Assembly: GCA_021204085.1 (NCBI GenBank)
Contig: JAJPZY010000135.1
Span: 4,851 to 68,850 of the forward strand
DNA: 64,000 nt
DNA from: Clostridiales bacterium
Lineage (GTDB): Bacteria > Bacillota > Clostridia > Lachnospirales > Lachnospiraceae
Direction of reading: 5' to 3'
This document shows, piece after piece, positions 10,943-30,134 of the stretch (position 1 is the stretch's first letter; the number at the start of each line of letters is the position of its first letter). A program made the translations under genes and the position numbers. The notes beneath the pieces were generated by a model. It had not been told where the DNA came from. It made no database searches and saw only the letters and a list, made by a program, of their open reading frames with translations.

Positions 10943-11860
10943 TTATACCTCCACTTCCAGCAATGTGAGGATCAGCGCCATACGTACATAAACGCCGTAC
11001 CTTGCCTGCTTAAAATAAACGGCTCTCGGGTCATCGTCCACCTCAACGGAAATCTCATTGACACGGGGAAGGGGATGCAGTACCAGCATATCCTTCGGAG
11101 CCAGTTCCATTTTTTCTTTGTTCAGGATGTAGAAATCCTTCATGCGGATATAATCTTCTTCATTGAAGAAGCGCTCGCGCTGTACGCGGGTCATGTAAAG
11201 AATGTCGAGTTCAGGGAGCGCGTCCTCCAGGCGGACAACCTCTTTAAACGGAATGTTTCCCCGTACCAGGACCTCATCATGGAGGTTGCTGGGAATCCGC
11301 AGTTCTTCCGGGGAAATCAGATCAAACTTGATGCCCGGATACCGAATCAGAGCGTGAATCAGGGAGTGGACGGTACGTCCGAACTTCAGGTCGCCGCACA
11401 GACCGATGGTCAGGTGGTCCAGACGGCCTTTTAAGCTGTAGATAGTCAGTAAATCTGTCAGCGTCTGAGTGGGGTGCTGATGCCCGCCGTCTCCGGCATT
11501 GATAACCGGGATGGTGGCTTTTTCCGATGCTACGAGCGGAGCGCCCTCCTTGGGATGACGCATTGCGCAGATGTCTGCATATTCGGAGATTACGCGAATT
11601 GTGTCGGAAACGCTCTCACCCTTTGAAGCGGAAGAATTTGCTGCGTCTGAAAAACCGAGCACCTGGCCGCCGAGATGAAGCATGGCGGATTCAAAGCTTA
11701 ATCGCGTGCGGGTGCTGGGCTCATAAAAGCAGGTGGCCAGAATTTTCCCGTCACAGGCATGCGCATATTTTTCCGGATGTTTTTCGATGTCGTTGGCCAG
11801 CCGAAGAAGCTCGTCCAGCTCTTCCACCGAAAAATCAAGCGGGCTGATCAGATGTCTCAT
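10943..11860 (-). CDS. pyrB: Aspartate carbamoyltransferase catalytic chain
   Basis: [20 protein letters not shown] and HPLPRVNEI. Confidence 0.97.
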
Positions 11861-16090: not shown

Positions 16091-16120
16091 TTGACAGGTT
16101 ACGTGAATACACATTATACT
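16091..16120 (+). promoter_or_regulatory. sigmaA-type promoter upstream of the hydF/nif-like/hyp cluster
   Basis: TTGACA-18 bp-TATACT. Confidence 0.7.
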
Positions 16121-16223
16121 TTGAGTAGTTAAGACATTTGCGAGAATCATTCATCTGACCATAAGGTACGGCCTGAAAGGAAAGACAAGTGATTGCAGCG
16201 ACAGGAAAGAGTTATTTATGCTG

Positions 16224-16257
16224 CCCTTGTACCCATTTTCAGGTACAAGGGTTTTTT
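16224..16257 (+). terminator. Intrinsic terminator inside the 5' leader of the hydF cluster (probable attenuator)
   Basis: cccttgtacc-cattttca-ggtacaaggg followed by TTTTTT, about 100 nt after the promoter and 300 nt before hydF. Confidence 0.8.
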
Positions 16258-16562
16258 GTAGTATATATACTTTGAATGTGGGTGGTGTGAGTGAGGAATA
16301 CAAACATGGAGACATTAAAAAGGCAGGGGATAGAATTGTTAATGTTGAGAATAATTTCTGGTTAATCGTCAGATTTTTATAAGCCGAGATTAACTAATGG
16401 ATGAACAACGAAAAAGGCAAAATGTGCCTCCCTGATCCTTGGGGATGACCTGAAAAATAAAGAAAAGTTTCCCAAAACGGGTTGCCGAAGGCAGGAACGA
16501 CCCGAGAAATGAAGAAAATTCGAAGAGAAGTAGTACAGCGCGGATAAAAGGAGGAATGAAAG

Positions 16563-17762
16563 ATGAGCCTGAACAGTACGCCTTCCGCGAACCGGATCCA
16601 CATCGGTTTTTTCGGAAGAAGAAATGCAGGAAAATCAAGTATCGTTAATGCAGTGACCGGGCAGGATCTGGCTGTGGTATCCGAGATCAGAGGGACGACC
16701 ACGGATCCGGTTTACAAGTCGATGGAACTCCTGCCCATGGGACCGGTGGTGATCATTGATACCCCGGGTTTTGACGATGAGGGAAGCCTCGGTGATCTAC
16801 GTGTAAAAAAGACCCGCCAGGTTTTAAATAAGACGGATGTAGCGGTGCTGATTGTTGACGCCTCGGAGGGAAAGCAGCCCTGCGATGAGGAATTGATCGC
16901 TTTGTTTCAGGAGAAGGAGATTCCCTATGTTGTGGCTTATAACAAGTCAGACCTTGTCACAGAGCAGCGAGAACTTTCTGAAAATGAGATCTCCGTTAGC
17001 GCGCTTTATAAGCAGGGAATTTATGAACTGAAGGAAATGATCGGGCGCTCTGTGGTGATGGAGGATGAACGGCTGAAAATTGTCGGAGATCTGATTCAGC
17101 CGGACGATTTTGTGGTACTGGTGGTGCCGATTGACTCGGCGGCTCCGAAAGGGCGGCTGATTCTTCCGCAGCAGCAGACCATCCGGGACGTCTTGGAGGC
17201 GGACGCCACGGCTCTTGTTGTGAAAGAGAACGGTCTGGCTGAGACTCTGAAAAACATGGGACAAAAGCCGGCGATGGTGATCACGGACAGTCAGGCTTTT
17301 GAGCAGGTGGCGACTACGGTGCCGGAGGATATTCTTCTGACCTCTTTCTCTATTCTGATGGCGAGATATAAAGGCTTTCTGGATGCGGCGGTAGAAGGCG
17401 TCCGGGCGCTGGACACACTGGAGGATGGCGATACGGTGCTGATTTCCGAGGGATGCACGCATCACAGGCAGTGCGACGATATCGGTACGGTGAAGCTTCC
17501 ACGTTGGATCAGGCAGTATACGGGCAAAGATATTCGCTTTGCGACGAGCTCCGGTACGGGGTTTCCGGATGATTTGTCCGGATATAAGATGGTGATTCAT
17601 TGCGGCGGGTGCATGCTCAATGAGCGGGAAGTAAAATACCGCATGAAATGTTCTCTGGATCAGGGCGTGCCGTTTACCAATTACGGGGTGACGATCGCGT
17701 ATCTGAAGGGAATATTGAAGCGGAGCGTGCAGGTGTTTCCTTATTTATATGAGAGATTATGA
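16563..17762 (+). CDS. hydF: [FeFe]-hydrogenase H-cluster maturation GTPase HydF
   Basis: [13 protein letters not shown] and NKSD GTPase motifs; GRLILPQ; Fe-S motif EGCTHH...HCGGCM; TNYG. Confidence 0.93.
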
Positions 17763-18505
17763 AGAAAATAGCAGTTTACGGAAAAGGCGGAATCGGAAAA
17801 TCTACGATTGTATCGAATATGGCGGCTGCACTGGCGCAGCAGGGATATCGTGTCATGCAGATCGGCTGTGACCCGAAAGCAGATTCTACAATTGCCCTGC
17901 GTCACGGGACGCCGCTTCCCACAGTGTTGGATACGTTTCGTCAGAAAAAAGATACTTTTACGTCGGAGGATATTGTAAGAATCGGATTTGCAGGCGTTGT
18001 CTGTATCGAAGCAGGCGGACCGGTACCCGGTGTTGGCTGCGCGGGACGGGGAATTATCACGGCGCTGGAGAAGGTTGAAGCGAAGGGAATTTATGATATT
18101 TATCAGCCGGATATCGTTTTCTACGATGTTCTGGGTGATGTGGTCTGCGGCGGATTTTCCATGCCGATGCGCAGCGGTTATGCGGACGAAGTCTATATCG
18201 TTTCCTCCGGTGAGAATATGTCCATTTATGCTGCGGCAAATATTGCGGCGGCGATCCGGAATTTTAAGGGGCGCGGCTATGCGAAGCTCGGCGGCGTGAT
18301 CTTAAACCGACGGAATGTAAAGCGGGAGAAGGAAAAGGTCGAGGAGCTTTGCCGGGATTTTGAGACCGGGATTGTCGGTGACATTGCGTTCTCGGAGCTG
18401 GTACAGGAGGCAGAGGAGCGGAAAGTAACTTTGCTGGAAGCATATCCGGAGAGTGACATCTCACTACAATTTCAACGTCTGGCCAGAACAATTGCGGATG
18501 CGTGA
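17759..18505 (+). CDS. Nitrogenase iron protein (NifH/BchL/CfbC family)-like ATPase 1
   Basis: [19 protein letters not shown], and cluster Cys in GCAGRG and DVVCGGF. At 248 aa it is shorter than canonical NifH. ATGA overlap with hydF. Confidence 0.92.
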
Positions 18506-18541
18506 AGGGAGCAAGCCTATATTTTTACTTATTTTGAGAAT

Positions 18542-18650
18542 CCAAGCAGCGGATAAGTGAGACATAAGTGAGATAGCAAATTTCAAATTTGCGTGATCGA
18601 ACTTATACAACGTAGGAAATCTCTGATTTCCGTAGTCGAATTTATGTAAA
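18542..18650 (-). repeat. REP-like repeat family B, copy 2 (inverted relative to copy 1)
   Basis: 91-bp identity to the reverse complement of 15815-15905. Confidence 0.93.
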
Positions 18651-18850
18651 ACTTCCACAGGTGAACGTCGAGCTTAGCAGAGTTGTTTCGTGTTTATATC
18701 GTTTGATATGAGAATGAAAACCCGAATCTGCGGTTTGGAAAAATCGGTGAACATGTATGGATATGAAATGTCTGAATGAAAGGATATGTCAGACTGACAT
18801 GTGAAGTAAATAAAGTAAAATATGGAAGTGTATAATAAGGCAGATATTGA

Positions 18851-20188
18851 ATGTTGCAGCGTTTAGAACATGATCAAAAGATAAATAATTTGAATACTGA
18901 AAATGTCTGTGTCCCGATTTCCGACGCGCACTTTCCTGCGCCGTTTCACGCGGGGCTGGAATACAGTTCTCCGGCGCGCGGCACCTGGAATATCGTCCAC
19001 ACGGGGATAATGATTCCGGAGTCGCACCAGATCTTTGTCTGTGCGCTGGGCTGCCTGCGGGGCGTGGTTCTGACAGCGGCGGAGATGAACGCGCTGGGCC
19101 GTTATTCTTCGATTCAGATTCGGGAGGAGAATGTTCTGGACGGCGGGATGGAAGATCTGATGATTGAGGGCGTCACGGACATCATTCAAAAGCTGGATGT
19201 CCGGCCGAAAGCGATTTTGCTTTTTATCAGCTGTCAGCATTTTTTCCTGGCGTATGATCAGAAAATTGTCTTTTCCGTCCTCCGCGAGCGCTTTCCGGAT
19301 ATTTATTTTACTGACTGTTACATGATTCCGACGCTTCGCAAGAGCGGCCTGACACCGGATCAGAAGATGCGGATTCAGATGTACAGCATGTTGGAACAAC
19401 GCCCGAAAAACAGAAAAAAGGTGAATCTGATCGGCAGCAATCTGGAGACGGCACATACTTCAGAACTGCGGCGGATGGTGGAAAACGCCGGGTATGAATT
19501 CTGGGATTTATACCGATGTCAGGACTTTAAGGACTACTTATCTATGGCAGAGGCGTCCTTAAACCTTGTCTATGAGCCGATCGCGTTGATGGCGGCGGAG
19601 GATTTGAAAAAGCGGCTGGGGCAGGAGTATCTTTATCTCACTTTCACCTATGATTTTGAAGAATTAGAGGAAAATTATCGGAAGCTGGCGGATGCGCTCG
19701 GGATTGAGAAGCCTGATTTTTCAACAGAGAAACACCGGGCGGAATTTGCGATTGCTCATGCAAAAGAGCTGATTGGGGACATGCCCATCGCGGTTGATTA
19801 TACGTTTACTTTCCGTATCTTAAGTTTTGCAAGGATGCTTTTAGAACAGGGCTTTCATATAACTGAGATTTACGCGGATTCGTTTTTGCCGGAGGATGAA
19901 GAAAATTTCAGGTGGATACAGGAGCAGTATCCTGATGTTCTGATCTCGGCTACGAATCAGCCGGTGATGCGGTTCGTGCATGGGGAGCATAGAATCCTCG
20001 CGATCGGCCAGAAAGCGGCATATTTTTCAGGAACGGATCATTTTGTAAATGTGGCGGAGAGCGGCGGCTTTTACGGATACGACGGGATTGTTCAGATTAT
20101 GAATCTGATGGAGGATGCGTTTTTCCGTAAAAAAGACAGAAAAACCATCATCCAGCGGAAAGGGTACGGGTGCGAGAGCTGCTTATGA
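18851..20188 (+). CDS. Nitrogenase component-1-like oxidoreductase, alpha-type subunit of pair 1
   Basis: Follows the nifH-like gene; VCALGC and FISC Cys sites; C-terminal GFYGYDG similar to NifD/NifE; terminal CESC. Confidence 0.8.
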   Translation: MLQRLEHDQKINNLNTENVCVPISDAHFPAPFHAGLEYSSPARGTWNIVHTGIMIPESHQIFVCALGCLRGVVLTAAEMNALGRYSSIQIREENVLDGGMEDLMIEGVTDIIQKLDVRPKAILLFISCQHFFLAYDQKIVFSVLRERFPDIYFTDCYMIPTLRKSGLTPDQKMRIQMYSMLEQRPKNRKKVNLIGSNLETAHTSELRRMVENAGYEFWDLYRCQDFKDYLSMAEASLNLVYEPIALMAAEDLKKRLGQEYLYLTFTYDFEELEENYRKLADALGIEKPDFSTEKHRAEFAIAHAKELIGDMPIAVDYTFTFRILSFARMLLEQGFHITEIYADSFLPEDEENFRWIQEQYPDVLISATNQPVMRFVHGEHRILAIGQKAAYFSGTDHFVNVAESGGFYGYDGIVQIMNLMEDAFFRKKDRKTIIQRKGYGCESCL

Positions 20189-21633
20189 GACAGGTGACGG
20201 GACTGACTTCTACATATTCATCGGATGAATTCGGCATCTGTTCCGCACTTTATGAGCTGGGCGGAATGGTCGTCATGCATGACGCTTCCGGATGTAATTC
20301 GACCTACACGACGCATGACGAACCGCGGTGGTATGACATGGACAGCATGATTTTCATTTCCGCAATCTCAGAGATGGAAGCCATCATGGGCGACGATGAC
20401 AAGTTTATCGAAGATCTGGTGGAGACGGCCGAAGAGCTGCAGCCGAAGTTTATCGCTCTTGTAGGGGCGCCGATTCCCTATATGATCGGTACGGATTTGG
20501 AGGCGATCGCGGCGATTGTCAGCGAGCGGGTGCAGATTCCCTGCTTTGCGTTTGCGGCGAATGGGATGCACGATTATACGCGCGGCGTGTCCATGGCGCT
20601 GGAGCGGATTGTAAGGGAATACGCTACTGAAGCTGTTTATTCAGGAAGACAGAAAGGTTCATTGGAGACAGAGAACCATGCCGGAAAGCTTGACAGAACG
20701 GAAACAAACATATATCCGGGAAAGAGTGAAACGGGAACGCCGGTATTCCGGGATGAACAGCAGCGGGTGCAGAGTTCTCCTGCATCGAACCGAGAGGATG
20801 TCCGGAAACAGTGTATGGCAGCTCCGATAACCGTCAACATCCTTGGCGCGACGCCCCTGGATTTTTCTTTAAACGGCAGTGTCGATTCCATACAAAAGTG
20901 GATTTCCAACCAGAAAATGCGAATGGGCTCCTGCCTTTCCATAGGATGTACGCTGGATAATATTCGGGAAATGGGAAATGCCGATGTCAATCTTGTGATC
21001 TCAGCCGGAGGTCTTGCAGCTGCAGAAATTTTGCGGGAGCGCTTCGGAACGCCTTATGTAGTGGGAGTTCCGTTTGGCGAGAAATTTTCGGAATATCTGG
21101 CGGAGATTGTACGGGAAGCGGCGAGTTCACAGAAAAACCGTATTTCCTATATGTTAAAAATATCGTGTAAAAACAGAGCAATGTCGCAATCCGATAAAAA
21201 AGCAGAAATATATTCTTGTGATGTCGGTGGAAATAAAACGCAGTTAAAACCTGCAGATGCAATCGGGAACAGCAATGTGTCTTCGAATTCTGATGTGGCA
21301 GGGGAGAGCGGGAAACGCATGCGTTGCGTTATCATCGGCGAGAGTGTATTTTCCGCATCTTTGGCCGCCGCGATTGAGATGGAGCGCAGGGTAAATGTGA
21401 AAGTACTTTGCCCACTGGAAAATGGAGCTGATTTGCTTCGTCCGGGTGATCTTGCCACGCCGGAGGAAGATGATCTGATTCGGGAGATAAAATCAGCAGA
21501 CGCGGTCATTGCGGATCCTCTGTATCAATCACTGGCTCGAGCGAAGCAGTTTTATCCGCTGCCTCATGAGGCATTTTCCGGGAGAATCTATGACAGTGTG
21601 AATCCGAATCTCATTGCGGTTCCGCTAAAGTGA
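20185..21633 (+). CDS. Nitrogenase component-1-like oxidoreductase, beta-type subunit of pair 1
   Basis: SDEFG, HDASGC, DEPRW, VNILGATPLD and IADPLY; ATGA overlap with the upstream gene; paralog of 23859-25016. Confidence 0.8.
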   Translation: MRQVTGLTSTYSSDEFGICSALYELGGMVVMHDASGCNSTYTTHDEPRWYDMDSMIFISAISEMEAIMGDDDKFIEDLVETAEELQPKFIALVGAPIPYMIGTDLEAIAAIVSERVQIPCFAFAANGMHDYTRGVSMALERIVREYATEAVYSGRQKGSLETENHAGKLDRTETNIYPGKSETGTPVFRDEQQRVQSSPASNREDVRKQCMAAPITVNILGATPLDFSLNGSVDSIQKWISNQKMRMGSCLSIGCTLDNIREMGNADVNLVISAGGLAAAEILRERFGTPYVVGVPFGEKFSEYLAEIVREAASSQKNRISYMLKISCKNRAMSQSDKKAEIYSCDVGGNKTQLKPADAIGNSNVSSNSDVAGESGKRMRCVIIGESVFSASLAAAIEMERRVNVKVLCPLENGADLLRPGDLATPEEDDLIREIKSADAVIADPLYQSLARAKQFYPLPHEAFSGRIYDSVNPNLIAVPLK

Positions 21634-21788
21634 GGGGCGTCATATTTAGTGATTTGAGATAAAGCCTTGCTGGGATGGGAAATAACCCACCAAAACAGAA
21701 GAATTGTGAAAATAGTGGGCAGCCGGGACAAAAAGCACCCCACCTAACCAGCAGAATTGTAATGTAGAGGGAAAGGAAATATAAATTT

Positions 21789-22547
21789 ATGTTAAAGCTT
21801 GCAATATATGGAAAAGGCGGGATCGGAAAGTCTACGACTACCGCGAATCTGGCAGCGGCCTTTGCCCTGCTTGGGAAAAAGGTCATTCAGATCGGCTGTG
21901 ATCCGAAAGCGGATTCGACCATCAATCTGCTGGGCGGGCATCCGATGCTGCCGGTGATGAATTATATCCGTGATCACGATGAGGAGCCGGAGCAGCTGGC
22001 GGAGATCGCGAAAGAGGGTTACGGCGGAGTCCTTTGCATTGAGACCGGAGGTCCGACACCGGGGTTGGGCTGTGCCGGCCGCGGCATTATTACGACATTC
22101 AGCCTGCTTGAAGATCTGGAACTTTTTGAGACCTATCAGCCGGATGTGGTTCTCTATGATGTGCTGGGAGATGTGGTCTGCGGAGGATTTGCCGCTCCGA
22201 TTCGCGAGGGTTACGCGGAGCATATACTGATCGTGACGTCCGGGGAAAAAATGGCGCTCTATGCAGCCAATAATATTCAGACGGCAGTTAAAAATTTTGA
22301 GGACAGAGGGTATGCCTCGGTAAAAGGGATTATTCTGAACCGGAGAAATGTGGAAAACGAATATGAAAAGGTATCCGCTTTTGCCGTAGAACATGGGTTG
22401 GACATCATTGCGGATATTCCCAGGAGCGCAGATATCATTCGCTATGAGGACATGGGAATGACGGTAATTGAGGGCGACCCGGATCTTCCAATCAGCCGGA
22501 TTTATCTGGAACTGGCGAAAAAACTGCTTTCGGAAGACCTTATATAA
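21789..22547 (+). CDS. Nitrogenase iron protein (NifH family)-like ATPase 2
   Basis: [25 protein letters not shown] and DVVCGGF; 252 aa. Confidence 0.92.
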
Positions 22548-22566
22548 ATATAAAAGGAATAAAAAC

Positions 22567-23850
22567 ATGCAGCAGAATGCGTACTATATTACAGCGGCAG
22601 AGTTGGCCGCAAAAGGAAAAGAAAATATTCCGGATGAACTGCAGTCTTCAAAACACCTGATCTACAGTTCGCCGGCTACACTGGCATTTCATTCGCCCGG
22701 AGCGCAGGGATTCGGTGTGAAACGAGCGGGTCTGGCTATCCCCGGTTCCGTGATGCTTCTGGTCTCCCCGGCCTGCTGCGGGAGAAATACGATGATGCTG
22801 GATCAGATTGGCGGATACGGGGATCGTTTTTTCTATCTGCTTCAGGATGACACGGATATCGTGACCGGACGCCATCTGAACCGGATTTCAAAGGCGGTGA
22901 AAGAAGTTGCGGATTCTCTGGATGAGAAACCCACAGCGGTGATGATCTGTATCACCTGCGTGGATGCGCTGCTGGGCACGGATATGGAGCGGGTCTGCCG
23001 GAAAGCGTCGGAGTACGCGGGCGTTCCGGTTTTGCCCTGTTATATGTATGCGCTGACCCGGGAGGGGCGTGTGCCGCCGATGACATCTGTGAGAAAGACG
23101 GTATATGCGCTTCTTGAAAAACGGGAGAGGAAAAAAACAGCGGTAAATCTTCTGGGCGAATTTGCTCCCTATGACGACGGCTGTGAGATTTATGAGATTT
23201 TAAATAATCTGGGGTTAAAGACGATTCGTGAAATTTCCCGGTGCCGGGACTTTGAAGAATACCTTTCCATGTCGGAGGCGAATTTTAATATTATTCTGAA
23301 CCCGGAGAGCCGCCTGGCTGCAGAGGATTTCCACAAGCGGTTGGGAATCCCCTCGCTTGAAATGACGCGGGTGTACCAGATTGACAAGATTCAAAAACAG
23401 TATGAACTTCTTGGAACCGCCCTCGGTGTAAAAATCGATGACTCCGCATACTATGAGGAAGCTATGCGGACGGTGGAAGAGTTTTCACAGGCTCATCCGC
23501 AGACTGTATTTGCCGTGGGAGAGTGGATGAACGGAGACCCCTTTGAACTGTCTCTGGCATTGCTACGATACGGACATCAGGTTGCGGAGATATACGGCAC
23601 AGTGACGAACCTGAACTTTATCTACATAAAAAAAATTGCTGCGCTCAGCCCGGAAACCAGAATATATACGAATCTCTCGCCGACTATGATGAACTACAAC
23701 TGCGGGGAAGGCGCGCCTGATATTACCATCGGGCAGGATGCCGCCTACTATCATCCCGATTGCCCGAACGTGCCCTGGAATGCGGAGAATAAACCGTTTG
23801 GATACGCGGGTCTACGGAATTTGGTTCATAGTATTTGTAGTATAATATAG
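22567..23850 (+). CDS. Nitrogenase component-1-like oxidoreductase, alpha-type subunit of pair 2
   Basis: SPACCGR, CITCVDALLGTD, VNLLG and PFGYAG; start moved to the ATG after the AAGGA RBS. Confidence 0.8.
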   Translation: MQQNAYYITAAELAAKGKENIPDELQSSKHLIYSSPATLAFHSPGAQGFGVKRAGLAIPGSVMLLVSPACCGRNTMMLDQIGGYGDRFFYLLQDDTDIVTGRHLNRISKAVKEVADSLDEKPTAVMICITCVDALLGTDMERVCRKASEYAGVPVLPCYMYALTREGRVPPMTSVRKTVYALLEKRERKKTAVNLLGEFAPYDDGCEIYEILNNLGLKTIREISRCRDFEEYLSMSEANFNIILNPESRLAAEDFHKRLGIPSLEMTRVYQIDKIQKQYELLGTALGVKIDDSAYYEEAMRTVEEFSQAHPQTVFAVGEWMNGDPFELSLALLRYGHQVAEIYGTVTNLNFIYIKKIAALSPETRIYTNLSPTMMNYNCGEGAPDITIGQDAAYYHPDCPNVPWNAENKPFGYAGLRNLVHSICSII

Positions 23851-23858
23851 GAGAAATT

Positions 23859-25016
23859 ATGAAAGGCCTTTTAAAATATCTGTCCCCCTTTGCCCCGGAT
23901 CAGTCGGGCGCAGTTTCCGTTTTATATGATCTGGGCGGCATGATCGTCATCTGCGACGCCGGCGGCTGCACCGGTAATTTCTGCGGATTTGACGAGCCGC
24001 GGTGGTTTGAAAAAAAGAGCGCGATTTTTTCCGCGGGCCTGCGGGATATGGACGCCATTCTGGGAAGGGATGACCGTCTGGTAGAAAAGCTGAAGGACGC
24101 GGCTGATCATCTGGATGCGAAATTTATTGCGCTTATCGGCACGCCGGTTCCGGCTGTAATTGCGACGGATTTTAAAGCATTGAAGCGAATGACAGAGAAG
24201 AAAACCGGATTGCCGGTGATTGTCAGCGAGTGCACCGGAACCCGCCTCTATGACAAAGGTGCGGAGGATGCGTACCTGTCACTTTTTCAGACTTTTGCAA
24301 AGCGGGATGTCAGAAAAAATGAACAGACTGTCGGTGTCATTGGAGTGAATCCGCTGGACACCAGTTATTCGGATGCAGCGCAGATTTTGGAGAGCGTGTT
24401 TCTGGACGAAGGATATGAGAATATCCTCTGTTACGGCGCAGAACATAAGCTTGAAAGCAGTGAAACGAATTTCAGCATGAAGAAGTCGGGAAATTGTATG
24501 CAGTTCAGCGATTCTTCGCCTGACGGGAAGAAACCTGCGGATAGCCTTGCAGTGATCGAACAGGCAGGAACCGCCGCAAAAAACATTGTTCTTGCACCAT
24601 CCGGAATCCGGGCGGCAAAATATCTGCAGGAAACTTTCGGCACTCCCTATGAAACGGCATATCCGCTGTTATCTGTAAAATTAAAAGAACGGCTGCACGG
24701 GCTCGCGGGAAAACGTGTGCTTGTCGTCCATCAACAGGTTGCGGCGAATGAGATTCGAAAAGAAATTGCAGGCGATGATGACCTGAATTTTTCAAAGATT
24801 GTCTGCGGCACATGGTTTATGCAGGTTCCGGAGCAGACCGCACAGCAGGATGTGCATTTTGAAAGGGAAGAAACATTTATTTCATACGTGGAACAAGGAA
24901 ATTTTGATGCGATTGTCGCGGACGGAAGGTTTCGCAGGGCGCTGCGCGGTTACAGGGGTGAGTTTGTGGAGTGCCCGCATTTTGCGGTTTCCGGGACGAT
25001 GGATTGTGAGTTATAG
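23859..25016 (+). CDS. Nitrogenase component-1-like oxidoreductase, beta-type subunit of pair 2
   Basis: PDQSG, CDAGGCTGNFC, DEPRW, GTPVPAVIATD and PHFAVSG. Confidence 0.8.
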   Translation: MKGLLKYLSPFAPDQSGAVSVLYDLGGMIVICDAGGCTGNFCGFDEPRWFEKKSAIFSAGLRDMDAILGRDDRLVEKLKDAADHLDAKFIALIGTPVPAVIATDFKALKRMTEKKTGLPVIVSECTGTRLYDKGAEDAYLSLFQTFAKRDVRKNEQTVGVIGVNPLDTSYSDAAQILESVFLDEGYENILCYGAEHKLESSETNFSMKKSGNCMQFSDSSPDGKKPADSLAVIEQAGTAAKNIVLAPSGIRAAKYLQETFGTPYETAYPLLSVKLKERLHGLAGKRVLVVHQQVAANEIRKEIAGDDDLNFSKIVCGTWFMQVPEQTAQQDVHFEREETFISYVEQGNFDAIVADGRFRRALRGYRGEFVECPHFAVSGTMDCEL

Positions 25017-25019
25017 AAG

Positions 25020-25178
25020 TTTTTTTTATATCATAGGAAAGACCTTGTTGTTGTAAAGTATTAAAGTATGCGATTTCCTATGATATAAAAACACTCCGTG
25101 AGGATGCGCAGCTCGCGGATAGGAGGTTTTGCTGCGCAACCGCTCGCGCGCGAAGTGTCGCAGAGCGACACTTTATTT
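25020..25178 (+). repeat. Palindromic repeat family A, copy 2 (lacks a 54-bp internal module)
   Basis: Same left hairpin, aaaaacactc..gaggatgcgcagc core and aagtgtcgc hairpin as copy 1; lacks the equivalent of 15397-15450. Confidence 0.9.
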
Positions 25179-25212
25179 TATGAGTAAGCCGAGATTGTAT
25201 AGGGACAGCAGT

Positions 25213-27690
25213 ATGAATACAGGAGAGAATCAGAAAAATAATTGCATAACGAAGCATATTCGTGTCTATGGTATCGTTCAGGGCGTTGGTTTTCGCCCGT
25301 TTGTGAGCCGGATTGCGGATCGGATCGGTGTGAGAGGGAGCGTAGCGAACAAAGGCTCCTATGTGGAAATATTTTCTGCCGGCACAGGAGAGCAGCAGGA
25401 GGAATTTTTACAGGCGTTGGAGCGGGAAGCTCCGGAGCGCTCTGCCATTTTAAAGGTGGATGTTTCTGATATTGAGAATCTTGCTTTTGATACCTTTGAT
25501 ATCATAGAGAGTGAGCGGGAAGAGGGAGATATCTTTGTCTCGCCGGATATCGCTACCTGTCCGAAATGCAGGCAGGAACTTTATGATCCGACGAACCGCC
25601 GGTATATGCACCCTTTTATTAATTGTACGGCCTGCGGGCCGCGGCTGACGATCTTGGACGCCATGCCCTATGACCGTGAACGGACCAGTATGAAGGACTT
25701 CCCCATGTGTCTGGAGTGTGAGTTTGAGTACACGCACGCGGAGACCAGGCGCTACGACGCCCAGCCTGTCTGTTGTAATGATTGCGGGCCGCAGGTGTAC
25801 CTGCTGGAACGAACTTCTCAGGCAGAGGAAAAAAATGTATGTTGCGGGAGGGAAGCCATCAGCAAGGCGCGAAAAGCAATCGCGGACGGAAAGATCGTAG
25901 CCATTAAAGGCATCGGCGGCTTTCATCTTTGCTGCGACGCCGCCAATGAATCAGCAGTGCGCCGCCTGCGGGAATTAAAGCATCGCCCCGCAAAGCCGTT
26001 TGCGGTGATGATGAAGGATTTGGAGACCGTATATGCGCAGTGTGAAGTGTCAGAAGTACAGAAGGAGATCCTGGACGGTCACGCGAAGCCGATCATTCTT
26101 TTAAAAAAGAAAGTTGGAAACCATCTGGCGGACGCGGTGGCGCCGGATAATCCGAATGTCGGAGTGATGCTGCCGTACGCCCCGGTACAAATGCTGTTGT
26201 TTGACTACAATGATGGTTTCGAGATGCCCACAGATACCTTTGTTATGACCAGCGGCAATGTGTCAGGCGCGCCGATTTGCCGGACAGATGAGGATGCGCT
26301 GCGGGAAATCAGCGGCTTCTGTGATCTGATTTTATCCCACGACCGAAAAATTCGCCTGCGTGCCGATGATTCGGTGATGAATTTTTATAAAGACGAGCCG
26401 TATATGATCCGGCGCTCCAGAGGATACGCGCCGCTCCCGGTCATGATGGATTTCCCGTGGCGCGGGCAGGTGCTGGCCGTCGGCGGCGAATTGAAGAATA
26501 CATTCTGCATCGCCAAAAATCAGCTGTTTTATTCCTCTCCCTATGTGGGGGATATGGCGGATGTCCGTACCGTTCAGGCGCTGACGGAATCGATTACGCG
26601 GATGGAGGAACTGCTGGAGGCAAAGCCGCAGCTGGCAGTCTGTGACCTGCATCCGAAATATAATACAACGGTTGTTGCCGAGAATACAGGACTCCCGTTG
26701 TTGAAAATCCAGCATCACTACGCGCACATTCTTTCCTGTATGGCGGAAAACAATCTGCCGCCTGATACAAAAGTGATCGGAGTTTCCTTTGACGGTACCG
26801 GCTATGGCACCGACGGAACGATCTGGGGCGGGGAATTTCTTGTGGCGGATTACTTCGGTTTTGAGCGGGCCGGCAGCATTCGGCCGTTTCTCCAGATCGG
26901 CGGCGATTCTTCCGCACGTGAGGGTTGGAGGATTGCGGTTTCTATGGTAAATTCGTTGTATCCGGACCGCGCAGCTGAGGTTGCGGAAGCGCTCGGTTTG
27001 TGCGATGAAAAGACACGGAAGCTCTATCAGCAGATGGCAGCGCGGCGAATCAATGCCGTGGAGTCGACCAGCGCAGGCCGCCTGTTCGATGCAGTCAGTG
27101 CAATCCTCGGCATCCGATTGGAATCCTCTTTTGAGGGAGAAGCGTCAACTACGCTGCAGTTCAGGGCGGAGGAGTATCTTGAGAGGAGAGGAAAGGTAAA
27201 AGAGGACATATGTGTTGCAGACGAATGTGACACGGAGAATTGTACCGGGAAGGAAGAAGTAGTTTTAAAAGAAGAAAAAGAATCTGGAAATGTCAGAAAC
27301 ACCTGCGGACTTCAACTAACAGGAGTAGCAGAAAGCACTTCGGACCGCCGGCTTCTTCTTCCAACTGATGAACTGGTGCGGTTTATCATTAATGAGAGAC
27401 TGGCCGGGCAGGATGCCTGCAAACTGGCGTATATTTTCCATCAGACTCTCGCGGAACAGATTATCGCCGGATGCAGAGTGATTTCGGAGGAGACCGGTAT
27501 TACATTCTGCGCCTTAAGCGGCGGCGTGTTTCAGAACCAGCTTTTGCTGGAACTTTGTGAAAAGGGCTTGACTGAAGCCGGATTTACCGTTTATCGTCAC
27601 CGCATGATACCGCCGAATGACGGCGGGCTGGCACTCGGCCAGGCGGCGGCCGGCATGGCATACCTGAATAATACGCTACAAGAAATATAA
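25213..27690 (+). CDS. hypF: Carbamoyltransferase HypF
   Basis: Acylphosphatase domain GIVQGVGFRPF, two CxxC-x18-CxxC zinc fingers, HHYAH, DGTGYGTDG and PPNDGG. The longer N-terminus in the ORF track comes from repeat A. Confidence 0.96.
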   Translation: MNTGENQKNNCITKHIRVYGIVQGVGFRPFVSRIADRIGVRGSVANKGSYVEIFSAGTGEQQEEFLQALEREAPERSAILKVDVSDIENLAFDTFDIIESEREEGDIFVSPDIATCPKCRQELYDPTNRRYMHPFINCTACGPRLTILDAMPYDRERTSMKDFPMCLECEFEYTHAETRRYDAQPVCCNDCGPQVYLLERTSQAEEKNVCCGREAISKARKAIADGKIVAIKGIGGFHLCCDAANESAVRRLRELKHRPAKPFAVMMKDLETVYAQCEVSEVQKEILDGHAKPIILLKKKVGNHLADAVAPDNPNVGVMLPYAPVQMLLFDYNDGFEMPTDTFVMTSGNVSGAPICRTDEDALREISGFCDLILSHDRKIRLRADDSVMNFYKDEPYMIRRSRGYAPLPVMMDFPWRGQVLAVGGELKNTFCIAKNQLFYSSPYVGDMADVRTVQALTESITRMEELLEAKPQLAVCDLHPKYNTTVVAENTGLPLLKIQHHYAHILSCMAENNLPPDTKVIGVSFDGTGYGTDGTIWGGEFLVADYFGFERAGSIRPFLQIGGDSSAREGWRIAVSMVNSLYPDRAAEVAEALGLCDEKTRKLYQQMAARRINAVESTSAGRLFDAVSAILGIRLESSFEGEASTTLQFRAEEYLERRGKVKEDICVADECDTENCTGKEEVVLKEEKESGNVRNTCGLQLTGVAESTSDRRLLLPTDELVRFIINERLAGQDACKLAYIFHQTLAEQIIAGCRVISEETGITFCALSGGVFQNQLLLELCEKGLTEAGFTVYRHRMIPPNDGGLALGQAAAGMAYLNNTLQEI

Positions 27691-27709
27691 AGCAGAGGAG
27701 GATATATAC

Positions 27710-27916
27710 ATGTGTGTAGGATTATCAGCAAAAGTAGTAGGAATTAAAGACGGCATGGCTTTGGTGGACGCGATGGGTGCGAAGCGTGAGGTTTCCGCAG
27801 AACTTTTGGATGAGCTGGAGCCGGGAGATTATGTCATGGTACATGCGGGTGTCGCGATCGCGAAGATCAATGGCGATGATGATGCCGAGGCAGATGACGT
27901 CATCGGTTTGCTGTAA
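27710..27916 (+). CDS. hypC: HypC/HupF chaperone
   Basis: Cys2 in MCVGLSAKV and GDYVMVHAGVA; 68 aa. Confidence 0.93.
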   Translation: MCVGLSAKVVGIKDGMALVDAMGAKREVSAELLDELEPGDYVMVHAGVAIAKINGDDDAEADDVIGLL

Positions 27917-27931
27917 AGAAGGAGAATTAAA

Positions 27932-28978
27932 ATGGACGACGCAATCAAAAAAGCGCGTGGGATTATTGAAAATTATGACGGGCCGAAGCTTCGGATCATG
28001 GAAGTCTGCGGCACGCATACACATGAAATTTTCCGTCTTGGAATACGGAATATCCTGCCGGATAATATTGAACTGATTTCCGGGCCGGGATGTCCGGTCT
28101 GCGTGACGCCGGTCGGTTATATCGACGAGGCGGTGATGCTGGCTTTGGAAAAAGGCTGCACAGTCTGTACATTCGGAGATCTGATCCGTGTGCCGGGAAC
28201 GAAGATGAGTCTGGCGGGAGCCCGCGCGGAAGGCGCGGATGTTAAGATCGTATATGCGCCGCAGGATGCGGTAACTGTTGCAAAAGAAAATCCGGACAAA
28301 CAGGTGGTGTTTCTGGCAGTAGGTTTTGAGACGACTACGCCGTCCGCCTGTCTTGCCGTAAAAAAAGCAAGGGAGCAGGGACTTGATAATTTTTCAATCC
28401 TGACAGCGAACAAGACCATGCCGAATGCGTATCAGGCGCTGAAAGGAAGTGCGGATGCATTCCTTTATCCGGGGCATGTCAATGCCATTACGGGCGAGGC
28501 AGACTGCCGGAAGCTGAAGGATGAGGGGGTTTCCGGAGTGATTGCCGGATTTACGGCAAAAGAGCTTTTGACGGCGCTGGCAGTTATTATAGAGAAATCA
28601 AAAACAGGAGAGCCGTTTTTTGTAAACTGTTATCCCAGAGTGGTCCGTCCTGAGGGAAATTCTGCCGGGAGGGCAATCATTGAGGAAGTGATGGAGCCCT
28701 GTGATTCTGAATGGCGGGGCTTAGGTGTGATTCCTGATTCGGGGCTTAAACTGCGGGAAGATTATCGTGAATTTGATGCGCGGTTAAAGTATAATCTTCC
28801 GGAAATCCACGGGAAGCCGAACCCGGCCTGCCGCTGCGGGGAGGTGCTTCAGGGGAAATGCCGCCCGGTGGATTGCAGTCTTTTCGGAAAAGTGTGTACG
28901 CCGCAGCATCCGGTGGGCGCATGTATGGTTTCCAATGAGGGAAGCTGCTCCGCATATTTTTCTTACGGAATCGGATGA
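27932..28978 (+). CDS. hypD: Hydrogenase maturation Fe-S scaffold HypD
   Basis: MEVCGTHT, GPGCPVC, GFETT, PGHV and the C-terminal Cys cluster ending GACMVSNEGSC. Confidence 0.96.
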   Translation: MDDAIKKARGIIENYDGPKLRIMEVCGTHTHEIFRLGIRNILPDNIELISGPGCPVCVTPVGYIDEAVMLALEKGCTVCTFGDLIRVPGTKMSLAGARAEGADVKIVYAPQDAVTVAKENPDKQVVFLAVGFETTTPSACLAVKKAREQGLDNFSILTANKTMPNAYQALKGSADAFLYPGHVNAITGEADCRKLKDEGVSGVIAGFTAKELLTALAVIIEKSKTGEPFFVNCYPRVVRPEGNSAGRAIIEEVMEPCDSEWRGLGVIPDSGLKLREDYREFDARLKYNLPEIHGKPNPACRCGEVLQGKCRPVDCSLFGKVCTPQHPVGACMVSNEGSCSAYFSYGIG

Positions 28979-29123
28979 TTGGATTATATTGAAGATACAA
29001 TTAAATGGATGAGTCAGGCCTGTTTTTTCGAAAATATGACTGCAGGTTTATATTTACGGATGGAGGACTTTCTATTGATAGATTTGGTAATCGGCAAATA
29101 GATGAATCGGGAAGGAAGAAAAA

Positions 29124-30134
29124 ATGAGTGATAGTAAAAAAGTAACCCTCGCCCACGGCGCGGGAGGAAAGCAGACGGCGGAATTGATCCGGGAGGTGTT
29201 CGCGGCGCATTTTTCAAATCCGCAATTTACGGCGGATGACGCGGCGGTGCTGGATGTGGGAAGTGGAAAAATTGCCATGTCTACAGACGGATTTATCGTG
29301 TCTCCCTATAAATTTAACGGAGGAAATATCGGAAAACTTTCCATTTGCGGGACAGTAAATGATTTGTCCTGCATGGGGGCGCGGCCGCTGTATCTGACCT
29401 GCTCCTTTATCATAGAGGAAGGATTTCCGCTTGATGAGCTGGAGCAGATCGCGGCATCCATGGAAAAAACAGCAATGGAGGCCGGTGTAAAGATCGTAGC
29501 CGGAGATACAAAAGTAGCCGGAGCCGGACAGGTGGATCATATTTTTATTACAACGACCGGAATCGGCGCATTGACGGAAGGTGTTTCAACCTCCGGAGCT
29601 TATGCGAGACCGGGGGATGCAATCCTTGTGACAGGCGATATCGGCCGGCACGGCTGCACCATTTTGCTTGCAAGAGAAGATCTGGGAATTGAAGCGGATA
29701 TTAAAAGCGATTGTGCCCCGCTCTGGGGAACCGTAGAGTTGATGATTGATGAAACAAAGGATATTCATGTGATTCGCGACGCAACGAGGGGCGGTGTGGG
29801 GACGGTTCTCTACGAAATTGCGGCGGAGAGCAATGTCGGCGTTCGGCTCGATGGCGCGGCAATCCCGGTTGATCCGGCAGTTCGCGGTGTCTGCGGAATG
29901 CTGGGACTTGATCCGCTCTATCTCGCGAATGAAGGAACCCTGGTCGTGATCGCACCCAGACCGGAGGCAGAGCGGTTGCTCACGGTTTTAAAGGATGGAA
30001 AATATTCGGCAAATGCTGCGATCATCGGTGAGATTACCGACAAGCTGCCGGGAAAAGTGGTTATGACTACGGAGATCGGGGCTGAAACTATGCTGCCGCA
30101 GCCGGGCGGGGAACTGTTGCCGAGGATATGTTAA
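29124..30134 (+). CDS. hypE: Carbamoyl dehydratase HypE
   Basis: LAHGAGGK, GTVNDL, DATRGG and the C-terminal PRIC. Confidence 0.96.
   Translation: MSDSKKVTLAHGAGGKQTAELIREVFAAHFSNPQFTADDAAVLDVGSGKIAMSTDGFIVSPYKFNGGNIGKLSICGTVNDLSCMGARPLYLTCSFIIEEGFPLDELEQIAASMEKTAMEAGVKIVAGDTKVAGAGQVDHIFITTTGIGALTEGVSTSGAYARPGDAILVTGDIGRHGCTILLAREDLGIEADIKSDCAPLWGTVELMIDETKDIHVIRDATRGGVGTVLYEIAAESNVGVRLDGAAIPVDPAVRGVCGMLGLDPLYLANEGTLVVIAPRPEAERLLTVLKDGKYSANAAIIGEITDKLPGKVVMTTEIGAETMLPQPGGELLPRIC

Follow-up and report, generated by a model that had tools for sequence, protein, structure and literature searches.

The P-cluster of the nitrogenase NifDK is bound by 3+3 Cys residues. In the maturation of [FeFe] hydrogenases, the radical-SAM tyrosine lyase HydG generates CO and CN on a dangler iron, with tyrosine as their source. 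The closest described relatives of our locus are the NifHEN-like pairs of gut Firmicutes in the 'red' clades of Fig. 4 of Dos Santos et al. 2012 (PMC3464626), from Coprococcus catus GD/7 as well as Dorea longicatena, for which that study already gave the ligand arrangement, the duplicated NifHEN-like sets and the link to hydrogenase maturation genes, and suggested a non-Cys, Asp-like ligand. As in our locus, these pairs keep Cys at aC88 and aC154 in the NifD/E-like subunit and at bC95 in the NifK/N-like subunit, have no FeMo-co ligands and come as two linked H-E-N-like copies beside hydrogenase maturation genes. There is no structural difference, and our locus is a further member of this group; one of the related loci (L016) also comes from a Dorea species. 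The ligand pattern, which a first-pass annotation of this DNA had presented as new, was thus known for the clade. What is added here is the invariant candidate ligands Asp14 and Asp33, the pairing of the subunits by gene fusions, the absence of NifB, the split between a D1 core and a Hyp-linked D2 module, and a distribution complementary to that of HydG.

The window is a 64,000-nt stretch from a Clostridiales bacterium (Lachnospiraceae; GCA_021204085.1, contig JAJPZY010000135.1, positions 4,851-68,850 of the forward strand), with the gene order hydF-H1-D1-K1-H2-D2-K2-hypFCDE, all on the + strand. The [FeFe]-hydrogenase H-cluster maturation GTPase gene hydF (16563..17762; TIGR03918, 570 bits with the cut-off at 325) is the genome's sole copy above this value and extends over the start of H1 (17759..18505; PF00142, 2.9e-87). 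H1, the NifH-like ATPase/[4Fe-4S] reductase partner of D1K1, carries the P-loop, Cys94 and GDVVCGGF with Cys130, and fell below all NifH, CfbC and BchL cut-offs in the NCBIfam equivalog search. D1 (18851..20188; 445 aa; PF00148, 72.9 bits) is an alpha-type component-1-like subunit, whose stop codon overlaps as ATGA with the ATG (20185) of the beta-type K1 (20185..21633; PF00148, 93.8 bits); K1 contains two variable low-complexity inserts. The second set consists of H2 (21789..22547; PF00142, 6.5e-88), the NifH-like ATPase/[4Fe-4S] reductase partner of D2K2, whose best solved relative is NifH of C. pasteurianum (1cp2, 258 bits; MarH, 227; BchL, ~170), the alpha-type D2 (22567..23850, from ATG 22567; 427 aa; PF00148, 103 bits) and the beta-type K2 (23859..25016; 385 aa; PF00148, 64.7 bits). 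D1, K1, D2 and K2 are the only PF00148 genes in the genome. They are followed by the carbamoyltransferase gene hypF (25129..27690, with a probable start at ATG 25213; TIGR00143, 750 bits against 466), hypC (27710..27916; 68 aa, identified from its translation with N-terminal Met-Cys and from orthologs that related loci carry between hypF and hypD), hypD (27932..28978; TIGR00075, 403 bits against 193) and hypE (29124..30134; ending in PRIC; TIGR02124, 423 bits against 252).

All residues quoted by the first-pass annotation were found in the sequence at the numbering given, and profile alignments confirmed its register against nitrogenase. In D1, the three P-cluster sites are occupied by R43, C68 (with C64 nearby) and C128, with further Cys at C156, C223 and in a disordered C-terminal tail, GC441xxC444L; in D2 they are A46, C71 (next to C70) and C131 (close to C128), with further Cys at C144, C158 and C226. 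D2 C71 pairs with the Cys of NifE 'HGPIAC' (NifD C88), D2 C131 with NifE C124 (NifD C154), and D1 C128 with the site-3 Cys of MarD (9d9u_A). Direct comparison of D1 with D2 (hhalign probability 99.9) pairs C68/C71, C128/C131, C156/C158 and C223/C226, and by these alignments D1 C64, D2 C70 and D2 C128 are extra, non-canonical Cys. The beta subunits, which align at an hhalign probability of 100, have D14, C19, H32, D33, C37 and A95/P96 in K1 (numbered from ATG 20185), and D14, C32, D33, C37, C42 and T95/P96 in K2. C37 (codon 20293..20295 in K1, 23967-23969 in K2) is at site 2, pairing with the Cys of 'HGSQGC' in NifK and NifN, and is the sole canonical P-cluster Cys remaining in the beta subunits; P96 pairs with alpha C128, leaving site 3 without a Cys. 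The invariant D14 (codon 20224..20226 in K1, 23898-23900 in K2) adjoins the first P-cluster site. It aligns one residue past the NifK C70 position, where it pairs with NifN Q19, or two residues past if the 25-residue spacing of IsrK is used, which places it near the first site, off its exact position. The second invariant Asp, D33, takes the place of D1 C64 and precedes the site-2 Cys by four residues. The NifD C275 position is not conserved (E242 in D1, N245 in D2), and that of H442 is an invariant Asn (D1 N400, D2 N405), as in NifE (N418), in agreement with the earlier statement that no obvious Cys275/His442 FeMoco pair is present.

Among 150 alpha cluster representatives at 50% identity, counted where the columns were covered, all have the site-2 and site-3 Cys and none has Cys at site 1. 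D14, D33, C37 and P96 occur in 25/25 diverse alignable beta sequences. Conservation across both sets of relatives indicates that the ligand pattern is no chance effect. The best reading of these sequences is a single [4Fe-4S]-type cluster at each alpha/beta interface, most likely in place of an 8Fe P-cluster, for which the alpha subunit would provide its Cys at sites 2 and 3, and the beta subunit its site-2 Cys; as the fourth, non-canonical ligand, either Asp of the beta subunit (Asp14 or Asp33) or an extra Cys specific to the pair may serve. The previously proposed non-standard interface cluster of [4Fe-4S] type, perhaps with an Asp ligand, is thus still the best inference, now with three conserved Cys and two conserved Asp behind it. 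An alternative in which the extra Cys help to bind a larger, P-like or double cluster, and which would be compatible with any of the functions considered below, seems improbable to us. Such a cluster could draw on extra invariant Cys close to the interface, next to the canonical residues (D1 C64 with tail C441 and C444; K1 C19; D2 C70 and C128, which form CC and CxxC motifs; K2 C32 and C42), and on a natural 862-aa D1-K1 fusion (L011) in which the D1 tail is directly N-terminal of the K1 start. However, these additional Cys differ between the two pairs and also across the wider family, in which C32, C42, C70 and C128 all vary; three Cys and two Asp are all that every member shares.

The same fusion, together with D2-K2 fusions of 770-1000 aa that are common in relatives and the ATGA overlap of the D1 and K1 genes, pairs D1 with K1 and D2 with K2. 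The AF2 models matched NifE/N/D/K and Mar in Foldseek at TM 0.5-0.68 and 12-19% identity. The D1 model (pLDDT 69, pTM 0.73; tail 430-445 below 50) matched NifN, NifE, AnfK and Mar at TM 0.5-0.6, and for the D2 model (pLDDT 75.8) the top match was NifE (9onk_A), which was also the best PDB match of the D2 profile (2.5e-12). All D and K proteins fell far short of each of the NCBIfam equivalog cut-offs (NifD/K/E/N, Vnf/Anf, BchN/B/Y/Z and CfbD), for instance 69 bits against 505 for NifE (TIGR01283) and at most 39 bits against 268 for CfbD (TIGR03282), and NifB was above cut-off in 0/33 carrier genomes. D1K1 and D2K2 would carry neither FeMo-co nor L-cluster, since the Cys275/His442 pair and NifB are both missing. 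A true or alternative N2-fixing nitrogenase is therefore a negligible prospect: H1 and H2 do resemble NifH more than BchL, but only 3/6 P-cluster Cys and no Cys275/His442 pair remain, NifB, NifE and NifN are absent, and every equivalog cut-off is missed. The first-pass interpretation was borne out on this point and only in part overall; its term 'group-IV-like' fits loosely, as the H proteins score near NifH and CfbC, clearly above BchL and BchX, while the D and K proteins belong to none of the subgroups characterised so far. Its further suggestion is that the pocket of the active site may be free to take some other cofactor or substrate. By sequence comparison, D1K1 and D2K2 are two alpha/beta pairs of a divergent, uncharacterised NifEN-like lineage, predicted to be unable to hold the metal clusters of nitrogenase.

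The genes of the system adjoin hydE, hydF and hydA; for example, one genome (G257) has hydA-hydB...hypEDCF-D2K2-H2 and H1-D1-K1-hydE, and in another (G256) hydA adjoins H2. We sampled 301 genomes of the family, about one per genus. HydG is above cut-off in 129/301, yet in 0/22 of the D2-bearing genomes, and in G135 it is left only as a frame with four stops. HydE is present in 22/22 D2-bearing genomes, and HydA in 21/21 of the others and in five copies in our own genome. D1 orthologs occur in 11 further genomes, without H2D2K2 and Hyp. Among the 162 HydE-bearing genomes, HydG is absent in 31/32 with the system and present in 126/130 without it (Fisher p = 9e-28, a value that takes no account of common descent; a few losses of HydG may be all that occurred). 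The exceptions are one genome with both HydG and a D1 operon (G284) and four with neither. We found no published report of this distribution relative to HydG in the literature. Comparative genomics thus suggests that the system stands in for HydG, and we lean, by a modest measure, towards a role in [FeFe]-hydrogenase H-cluster biogenesis that replaces HydG and uses one interface [4Fe-4S]-type cluster.

In such a role, the heteromeric nitrogenase-like components D1K1 and D2K2, with H1 and H2 as their respective NifH-like ATP-driven reductases, would work with HydE and HydF in hosts lacking the radical-SAM enzyme HydG. H1D1K1, present in every operon variant, would be the core module, and H2D2K2 in the window would act with HypFCDE, which makes cyanide and an Fe(CN)2CO unit. 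Together they would furnish, or act on, the iron-carbonyl-cyanide building block for which HydG is responsible elsewhere, with electrons presumably passing from H through the interface cluster to the bound iron unit. The link to Hyp is close: hypD is found in 22/22 D2-bearing genomes, mostly within ~5 kb of D2, and the [NiFe] large subunit is missing in 20/22, our own genome included, the remaining 2/22 having a second hypD beside it; in comparison, 25/26 genomes with hypD and no D2 have a [NiFe] large subunit. Set against a replacement of HydG, the D1-only genomes have no Hyp, so that Hyp is no general HydG substitute and the CO/CN source there is unexplained; Hyp's Fe(CN)2CO and the Fe(CO)2(CN) synthon of HydG differ in CO:CN ratio; and the five HydA paralogs would in any case require the lone hydF.

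The tight linkage of hyp in genomes without [NiFe] hydrogenase could also fit a self-contained new metalloenzyme, in which HypFCDE gives Fe(CN)2CO for a novel cofactor, one pair serves as scaffold and the other as catalyst, as in NifEN/NifDK, and the ATP-driven reduction is unrelated to [FeFe] hydrogenase. Two paralogous H-D-K sets in tandem, the NifE-like D2 (Asn at the His442 position, NifE as top PDB match) and the flexible Cys tail of D1 would agree with this reading, which we still regard as rather unlikely: it leaves the near-perfect HydG complementarity, the embedding between hydE and hydF and the adjoining hydA without explanation, and H1D1K1 without H2D2K2 and Hyp in 11 genomes argues against an obligate scaffold-enzyme couple. 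The D1-only operons bear on another proposal, a reductase that is coupled to transport and acts on a metal chelate or tetrapyrrole, comparable to CfbCD/DPOR, whose pocket would take an imported iron chelate or porphyrinoid and whose hydrogenase-maturase neighbours would be incidental. In 9/9 D1-only genomes the order is fecCD-abc-H1-D1-K1-lipoprotein SBP, and sister clades likewise always have a lipoprotein Peripla_BP_2/FecCD/ABC importer, sometimes with iron-related neighbours; the ABC-transporter link was remarked by Dos Santos et al. (PMC3464626), and in having Cys at sites 2 and 3 only, the alpha subunits match NflD/CfbD. We nevertheless consider such a reductase a doubtful candidate, as neither the window nor its closest relatives carry an importer of this kind, with Hyp and H2D2K2 in its place, the importer operons themselves have hydE inside (four of nine) or hydF directly adjoining (seven of nine), and the HydG complementarity again goes unexplained.

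Like NifEN with NifH, the D/K pairs have an alpha2beta2-type component-1 fold and a NifH-type ATPase partner, one predicted interface [4Fe-4S] cluster and no P-cluster, a beta subunit that gives the site-2 Cys only, Asn at the NifD His442 position, and NifE as top PDB match of D2. In contrast to NifE, which supplies three Cys (37, 62 and 124), the alpha subunits here lack the first, as well as Cys250, and neither NifB nor a supply of L-cluster is present. The alpha Cys positions are those that Dos Santos et al. (PMC3464626) give for NflD, and CfbD shares the simple [4Fe-4S] cluster predicted here at the subunit interface and the lack of FeMo-co ligands. However, CfbD is a homodimer with symmetric coordination by two Cys per subunit and no K partner, encoded among F430 genes, whereas the pairs here have a distinct beta subunit that contributes one Cys and probably Asp, an asymmetric CfbD-like arrangement, and lie among hydrogenase maturases. 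The NB-cluster of DPOR (BchNB/ChlNB), a [4Fe-4S] cluster held by three Cys plus one Asp, is a precedent for the proposed ligands, although its three Cys all come from the alpha-type BchN and its Asp (BchB D36) is at site 2; here beta site 2 is Cys, the candidate Asp lies elsewhere and the ligands would be split ~2+2, and H1 and H2 are far nearer NifH than BchL. Finally, HydG has no sequence or fold relationship to the D/K proteins, but fills the same genomic and phyletic slot, with HydE, HydF and HydA, in near mutual exclusion; in contrast to HydG, the system here would draw its cyanide, through HypEF, from carbamoyl phosphate and receive electrons from the ATP-driven NifH-like proteins.

The cluster lies on the plus strand and opens with hydF (16563-17762), which encodes a maturase of the [FeFe]-hydrogenase HydA, followed by the NifH-like reductase H1 (17759-18505), the alpha-type subunit D1 (18851-20188) and the beta-type subunit K1 (20185-21633). 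A second set consists of the NifH-like H2 (21789-22547), D2 (22567-23850) and K2 (23859-25016), and is followed by hypF, hypC, hypD and hypE (25129-30134), which encode the CN/CO ligand machinery of [NiFe] hydrogenases. The P-loop and the two cluster-binding Cys are retained in H1 and H2. The stop codon of D1 overlaps the start codon of K1 (ATGA), a natural D1-K1 fusion of 862 aa is encoded in a related locus (L011), and many relatives encode D2-K2 fusions. The genome holds no PF00148 gene other than D1, K1, D2 and K2. For comparison we used 37 related loci from gut Clostridia, with Roseburia faecis, Eubacterium ramulus, Dorea, Anaerostipes and Blautia among the sources, from which four family alignments (A1-A4) were built. 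The relatives show two gene orders, each keeping H2-D2-K2-hypFCDE and H1-D1-K1 together.

The 345 nt between H1 and D1 (18506-18850) contain no ORF and matched no Rfam family; in relatives D1 directly follows H1, which is often longer there (253-305 aa). The hydF leader (16091-16562) likewise gave no Rfam family at E ≤ 1. K1 (20185-21633) carries two long low-complexity insertions, at residues about 150-215 and 320-385. These are probably surface loops, since their length and sequence vary even between close relatives and they are missing in distant ones. On the minus strand (10943-11860), about 5 kb from the cluster on its upstream side, is an aspartate/ornithine carbamoyltransferase gene; the substrate of the encoded enzyme, carbamoyl phosphate, is also that of HypF. 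The flanks of the cluster consist of unrelated housekeeping genes and are not conserved in relatives, so this proximity is probably a coincidence.

All four component-1-like subunits were recognised by PF00148 (Oxidored_nitro) at 64.7-103 bits, against a gathering cut-off of 28.6. The AF2 models of D1 (pLDDT 69, pTM 0.73) and D2 (pLDDT 75.8, pTM 0.74) showed the three-domain component-1 fold, with TM of 0.5-0.68 to NifE/N/D/K and methylthio-alkane reductase (Mar) structures at an identity of only 12-19%. As a deep tree is unreliable at such identity, subgroup placement was based on equivalog HMM cut-offs and PDB profile scores. D1, K1, D2 and K2 approached none of the NCBIfam equivalog cut-offs for NifD/K/E/N, Vnf/Anf, BchN/B/Y/Z or CfbD. 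A phmmer search of the PDB with the D1 sequence alone returned no match, and therefore family profiles were required. Among the reductases, H2 scored 258 bits to NifH (1cp2) and about 170 bits to BchL.

The first-pass annotation had read the P-cluster positions (sites 1, 2 and 3 of NifD and NifK) as lacking Cys at site 1 of the alpha-type subunits and at sites 1 and 3 of the beta-type subunits. Alignment to solved structures confirmed this pattern, alpha (-,C,C) and beta (-,C,-), and profile matches to NifE, NifK, NifN and MarD showed that its register against nitrogenase was right. In D2, C71 aligns with the Cys of the NifE motif HGPIAC, which is the NifD C88 position, and C131 aligns with NifE C124, the NifD C154 position. 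D1 C128 pairs with the site-3 Cys of MarD, and the D1 and D2 profiles align with a probability of 99.9 at a constant N-terminal offset of 3, pairing C68 with C71 and C128 with C131. Site 1 is occupied by R43 in D1 (His in distant relatives) and by Ala46, which is invariant, in D2. The C37 of the beta subunits corresponds to the Cys of the motif HGSQGC in NifK and NifN, P96 pairs with alpha site 3, and D14 lies one residue past the NifK C70 position. A second invariant Asp, D33, is four residues upstream of the site-2 Cys, at the position of the extra Cys of D1, C64. The FeMo-co ligand positions are also changed: that of Cys275 is variable (E242 in D1, N245 in D2), and that of His442 is an invariant Asn in both proteins, as in NifE.

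These features extend across the wider family. A profile search of 1.84 billion representatives returned 308 members at E ≤ 1e-30; in the best 150 of these, both alpha Cys (sites 2 and 3) occur in every sequence that covers their columns, and none has Cys at site 1. D14, D33, C37, D45, R48 and P96 are shared by all 25 diverse alignable beta sequences, and E46 by all but one. Other Cys are pair-specific and vary (C64, C156 and C223 in D1; C70, C128, C158 and C226 in D2; C32 and C42 in K2). In the AF2 models, C156/C158 and C223/C226 sit at C-terminal strand ends or in the following loops, and they were considered as obligatory pocket ligands; this role was abandoned because many wider-family members have Ser, Ala, Thr or Met instead. 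C441, in a C-terminal tail of D1 predicted by AF2 to be disordered, is kept in all D1 orthologs examined. The pairing of the subunits, the presence of only four PF00148 genes and the absence of NifB over its cut-off from the carrier genomes (0/33) lead us to infer that each alpha/beta interface holds one [4Fe-4S]-type cluster, with three Cys as ligands and either Asp or an additional Cys as the fourth, and that D1K1 and D2K2 would carry no M- or L-type cluster.

To place the system in its genomic setting, we sampled the family at about one genome per genus (301 genomes). A D2 ortholog is found in 22 of them; each of the 22 also carries hypD, in most cases no more than about 5 kb away from D2. 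One explanation for hypFCDE is a hidden [NiFe] hydrogenase, and of the 26 genomes that carry hypD and lack D2, 25 do encode a [NiFe] large subunit. Only two of the 22 D2-bearing genomes have one, both with a second hypD beside it, and none was found in the window's own genome. We therefore reject this explanation: the large subunit is missing from the own genome and from 20 of the 22 D2-bearing genomes, and by genome distribution the D2-linked hyp genes serve the nitrogenase-like system.

The same genomes differ in their HydA maturases. HydG exceeds its cut-off in 129 of the 301 genomes and in none of the 22 with D2, which all have HydE and [FeFe]-hydrogenase genes. D1 orthologs accompany D2 in these genomes, with none detected in one that is incomplete (G220), and 11 further genomes carry D1 without D2 or Hyp. 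Among the 162 HydE-bearing genomes, those with the nitrogenase-like system comprise 31 without HydG and 1 with it, and those lacking the system comprise 4 without HydG and 126 with it. This complementarity gives a Fisher p of 9e-28, a statistic that ignores phylogeny and is inflated by shared ancestry. Apart from the one genome with both HydG and the system, the carrier genomes tested have [FeFe] hydrogenases, HydE and HydF, and lack HydG. In one genome carrying D1 and D2, a HydG-like frame with four stop codons, below the family cut-off, looks like a decaying hydG (G135:C12:10202-11329).

Gene neighbourhoods tie H1D1K1 to the same maturases. In nine genomes examined, the D1-only operon has the order fecCD-abc-H1-D1-K1-lipoprotein binding protein, with hydE inside the operon in 4/9 and hydF directly adjoining it in 7/9. 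That hydF adjoins the cluster by mere coincidence is a reading weakened by these operons, which are flanked by hydE and hydF. In one genome (G257) the whole Hyp/nitrogenase-like cluster is flanked by hydA-hydB and hydE, and in another (G256) hydA adjoins H2. A group of loci (L058-L065, e.g. L059 4512-12965) has the highly conserved order fecCD-abc-(hydE)-H1-D1-K1-binding lipoprotein-hydF, in genomes without HydG, Hyp and D2. A large sister clade of NifH-D-K sets (L051 9205-14577, L053 5876-12053) is found with a Peripla_BP_2/FecCD/ABC importer and with FeoA, FTR1 and an iron-dependent repressor nearby; within the region covered, there is no hydrogenase maturase near these sets.

HydG is regarded as essential for supplying the H-cluster with its CO and CN ligands. 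One paper reports about 1% HydA activation by HydE and HydF alone, from stray diatomics. We give an even chance to the proposal that H1D1K1 provides a HydG-independent pathway, not recognised before, to the iron-carbonyl-cyanide H-cluster precursor. The module would be fed by HypFCDE and H2D2K2 in the window or by an iron-chelate-type ABC importer elsewhere, and the ligand set would mark an organometallic-iron scaffold or reductase, as opposed to an enzyme that reduces a substrate. In the best-supported model, H1D1K1 would be the core module alongside HydE and HydF where HydG is absent; H2D2K2 and HypFCDE would accompany it in the window, and the importer would take their place elsewhere. The H proteins would deliver ATP-driven low-potential electrons to the interface cluster, and the D/K proteins would hold or process an iron-CO/CN unit. 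Counting against the proposal, the CO:CN ratio of the Hyp product differs from that of the HydG synthon, and in the D1-only genomes no source of CO or cyanide is evident. Our literature search found no paper proposing a HydG-independent H-cluster route via a nitrogenase-like module. The carriers are butyrate- and hydrogen-producing bacteria that form a common group in the human gut, with relatives in Roseburia, Dorea, Blautia, Anaerostipes and Eubacterium ramulus. If the system does replace HydG, an organometallic cofactor would have two ways of being made, the nitrogenase fold would take on a new function, and the Hyp proteins would for the first time be at work beyond [NiFe] hydrogenases. 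The system merits attention because this hypothesis is testable; the wider picture weighs more than the ligand pattern itself, which places D1, K1, D2 and K2 among nitrogenase relatives with simple clusters.

Finally, we compared the window with the named nitrogenase-like systems. In NifDK, VnfDK and AnfDK the P-cluster is bound by six Cys (alpha 62, 88 and 154; beta 70, 95 and 153) and FeMo-co by alpha Cys275 and His442. Here only the equivalents of alpha 88, alpha 154 and beta 95 are Cys, the FeMo-co ligand pair is absent from D1 and D2, and the window's proteins score at most 32 bits with TIGR01282 and TIGR01286 (cut-offs 654 and 427). NifEN is characterised by NifE Cys37/62/124, NifN Cys44 and NifE Cys250; the alpha site-2 and site-3 Cys and the beta site-2 Cys are shared, whereas there is no Cys at site 1 and no counterpart of Cys250, and neither TIGR01283 (best score 69 bits, cut-off 505) nor TIGR01285 was reached. 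DPOR and COR (BchNB and BchYZ, group V) have three Cys in the N/Y subunit, an Asp at beta site 2 and a BchL/X-type reductase. In contrast, the window has two alpha Cys, a Cys at beta site 2 and an H2 nearer NifH than BchL, and the TIGR01278/01279 cut-offs were missed. In CfbCD (group IV-B) the D subunit forms a homodimer and has no K partner, whereas here the beta genes are separate, or fused to alpha in relatives, and the best TIGR03282 (CfbD) score was 39 bits (cut-off 268). Mar (group IV-C) has the P-cluster Cys set, and both Mar and Isr have a NifB-like or radical-SAM 'B' partner. In Isr (group IV-F), IsrD has a single Cys and IsrK has three (PMC11423573). The MarBHDK and IsrBHDK patterns differ from those found here, the Mar structures 9d9u and 9fmg gave only weak profile matches (1e-3 to 6e-3), and the window's cluster lacks a B-type radical-SAM gene. 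Group VI systems (Elusimicrobia type) have a NifH sister to group V and radical-SAM-rich neighbourhoods; here the neighbours are Hyp/Hyd maturases, without radical-SAM arrays, and in score comparisons H1 and H2 lie closer to NifH and CfbC than to BchL.

The first-pass annotation's interpretation thus stands in part. That this is not an N2-fixing nitrogenase is borne out by the retention of three of six P-cluster Cys, the loss of the Cys275/His442 pair, the missed cut-offs and the absence of NifB. Its term 'group-IV-like' fits the H1 and H2 scores only loosely, and the D and K proteins lie outside the characterised groups, IV-B (CfbCD), IV-C (Mar) and IV-F (Isr) among them. The ligand pattern is a rediscovery, as it was published by Dos Santos et al. 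2012 (PMC3464626). A 2026 review of nitrogenase-like systems makes no mention of Hyp- or HydF-linked members. Dos Santos et al. described clades with two alpha Cys (aC88, aC154) and one beta Cys (bC95), including gut Firmicutes such as Coprococcus catus and Dorea longicatena, which have two linked NifHEN-like copies with hydrogenase maturation proteins, and suggested that a non-Cys ligand may serve, like the Asp of DPOR (PMC3464626). The window matches these NifHEN-like pairs in its Cys pattern, the absence of FeMo-co ligands, the two linked copies and the hydrogenase-maturase neighbours. Assigned by these shared features and by the Dorea relative among our loci, it is a further member of the Dos Santos et al. 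clade, a known but uncharacterised kind.
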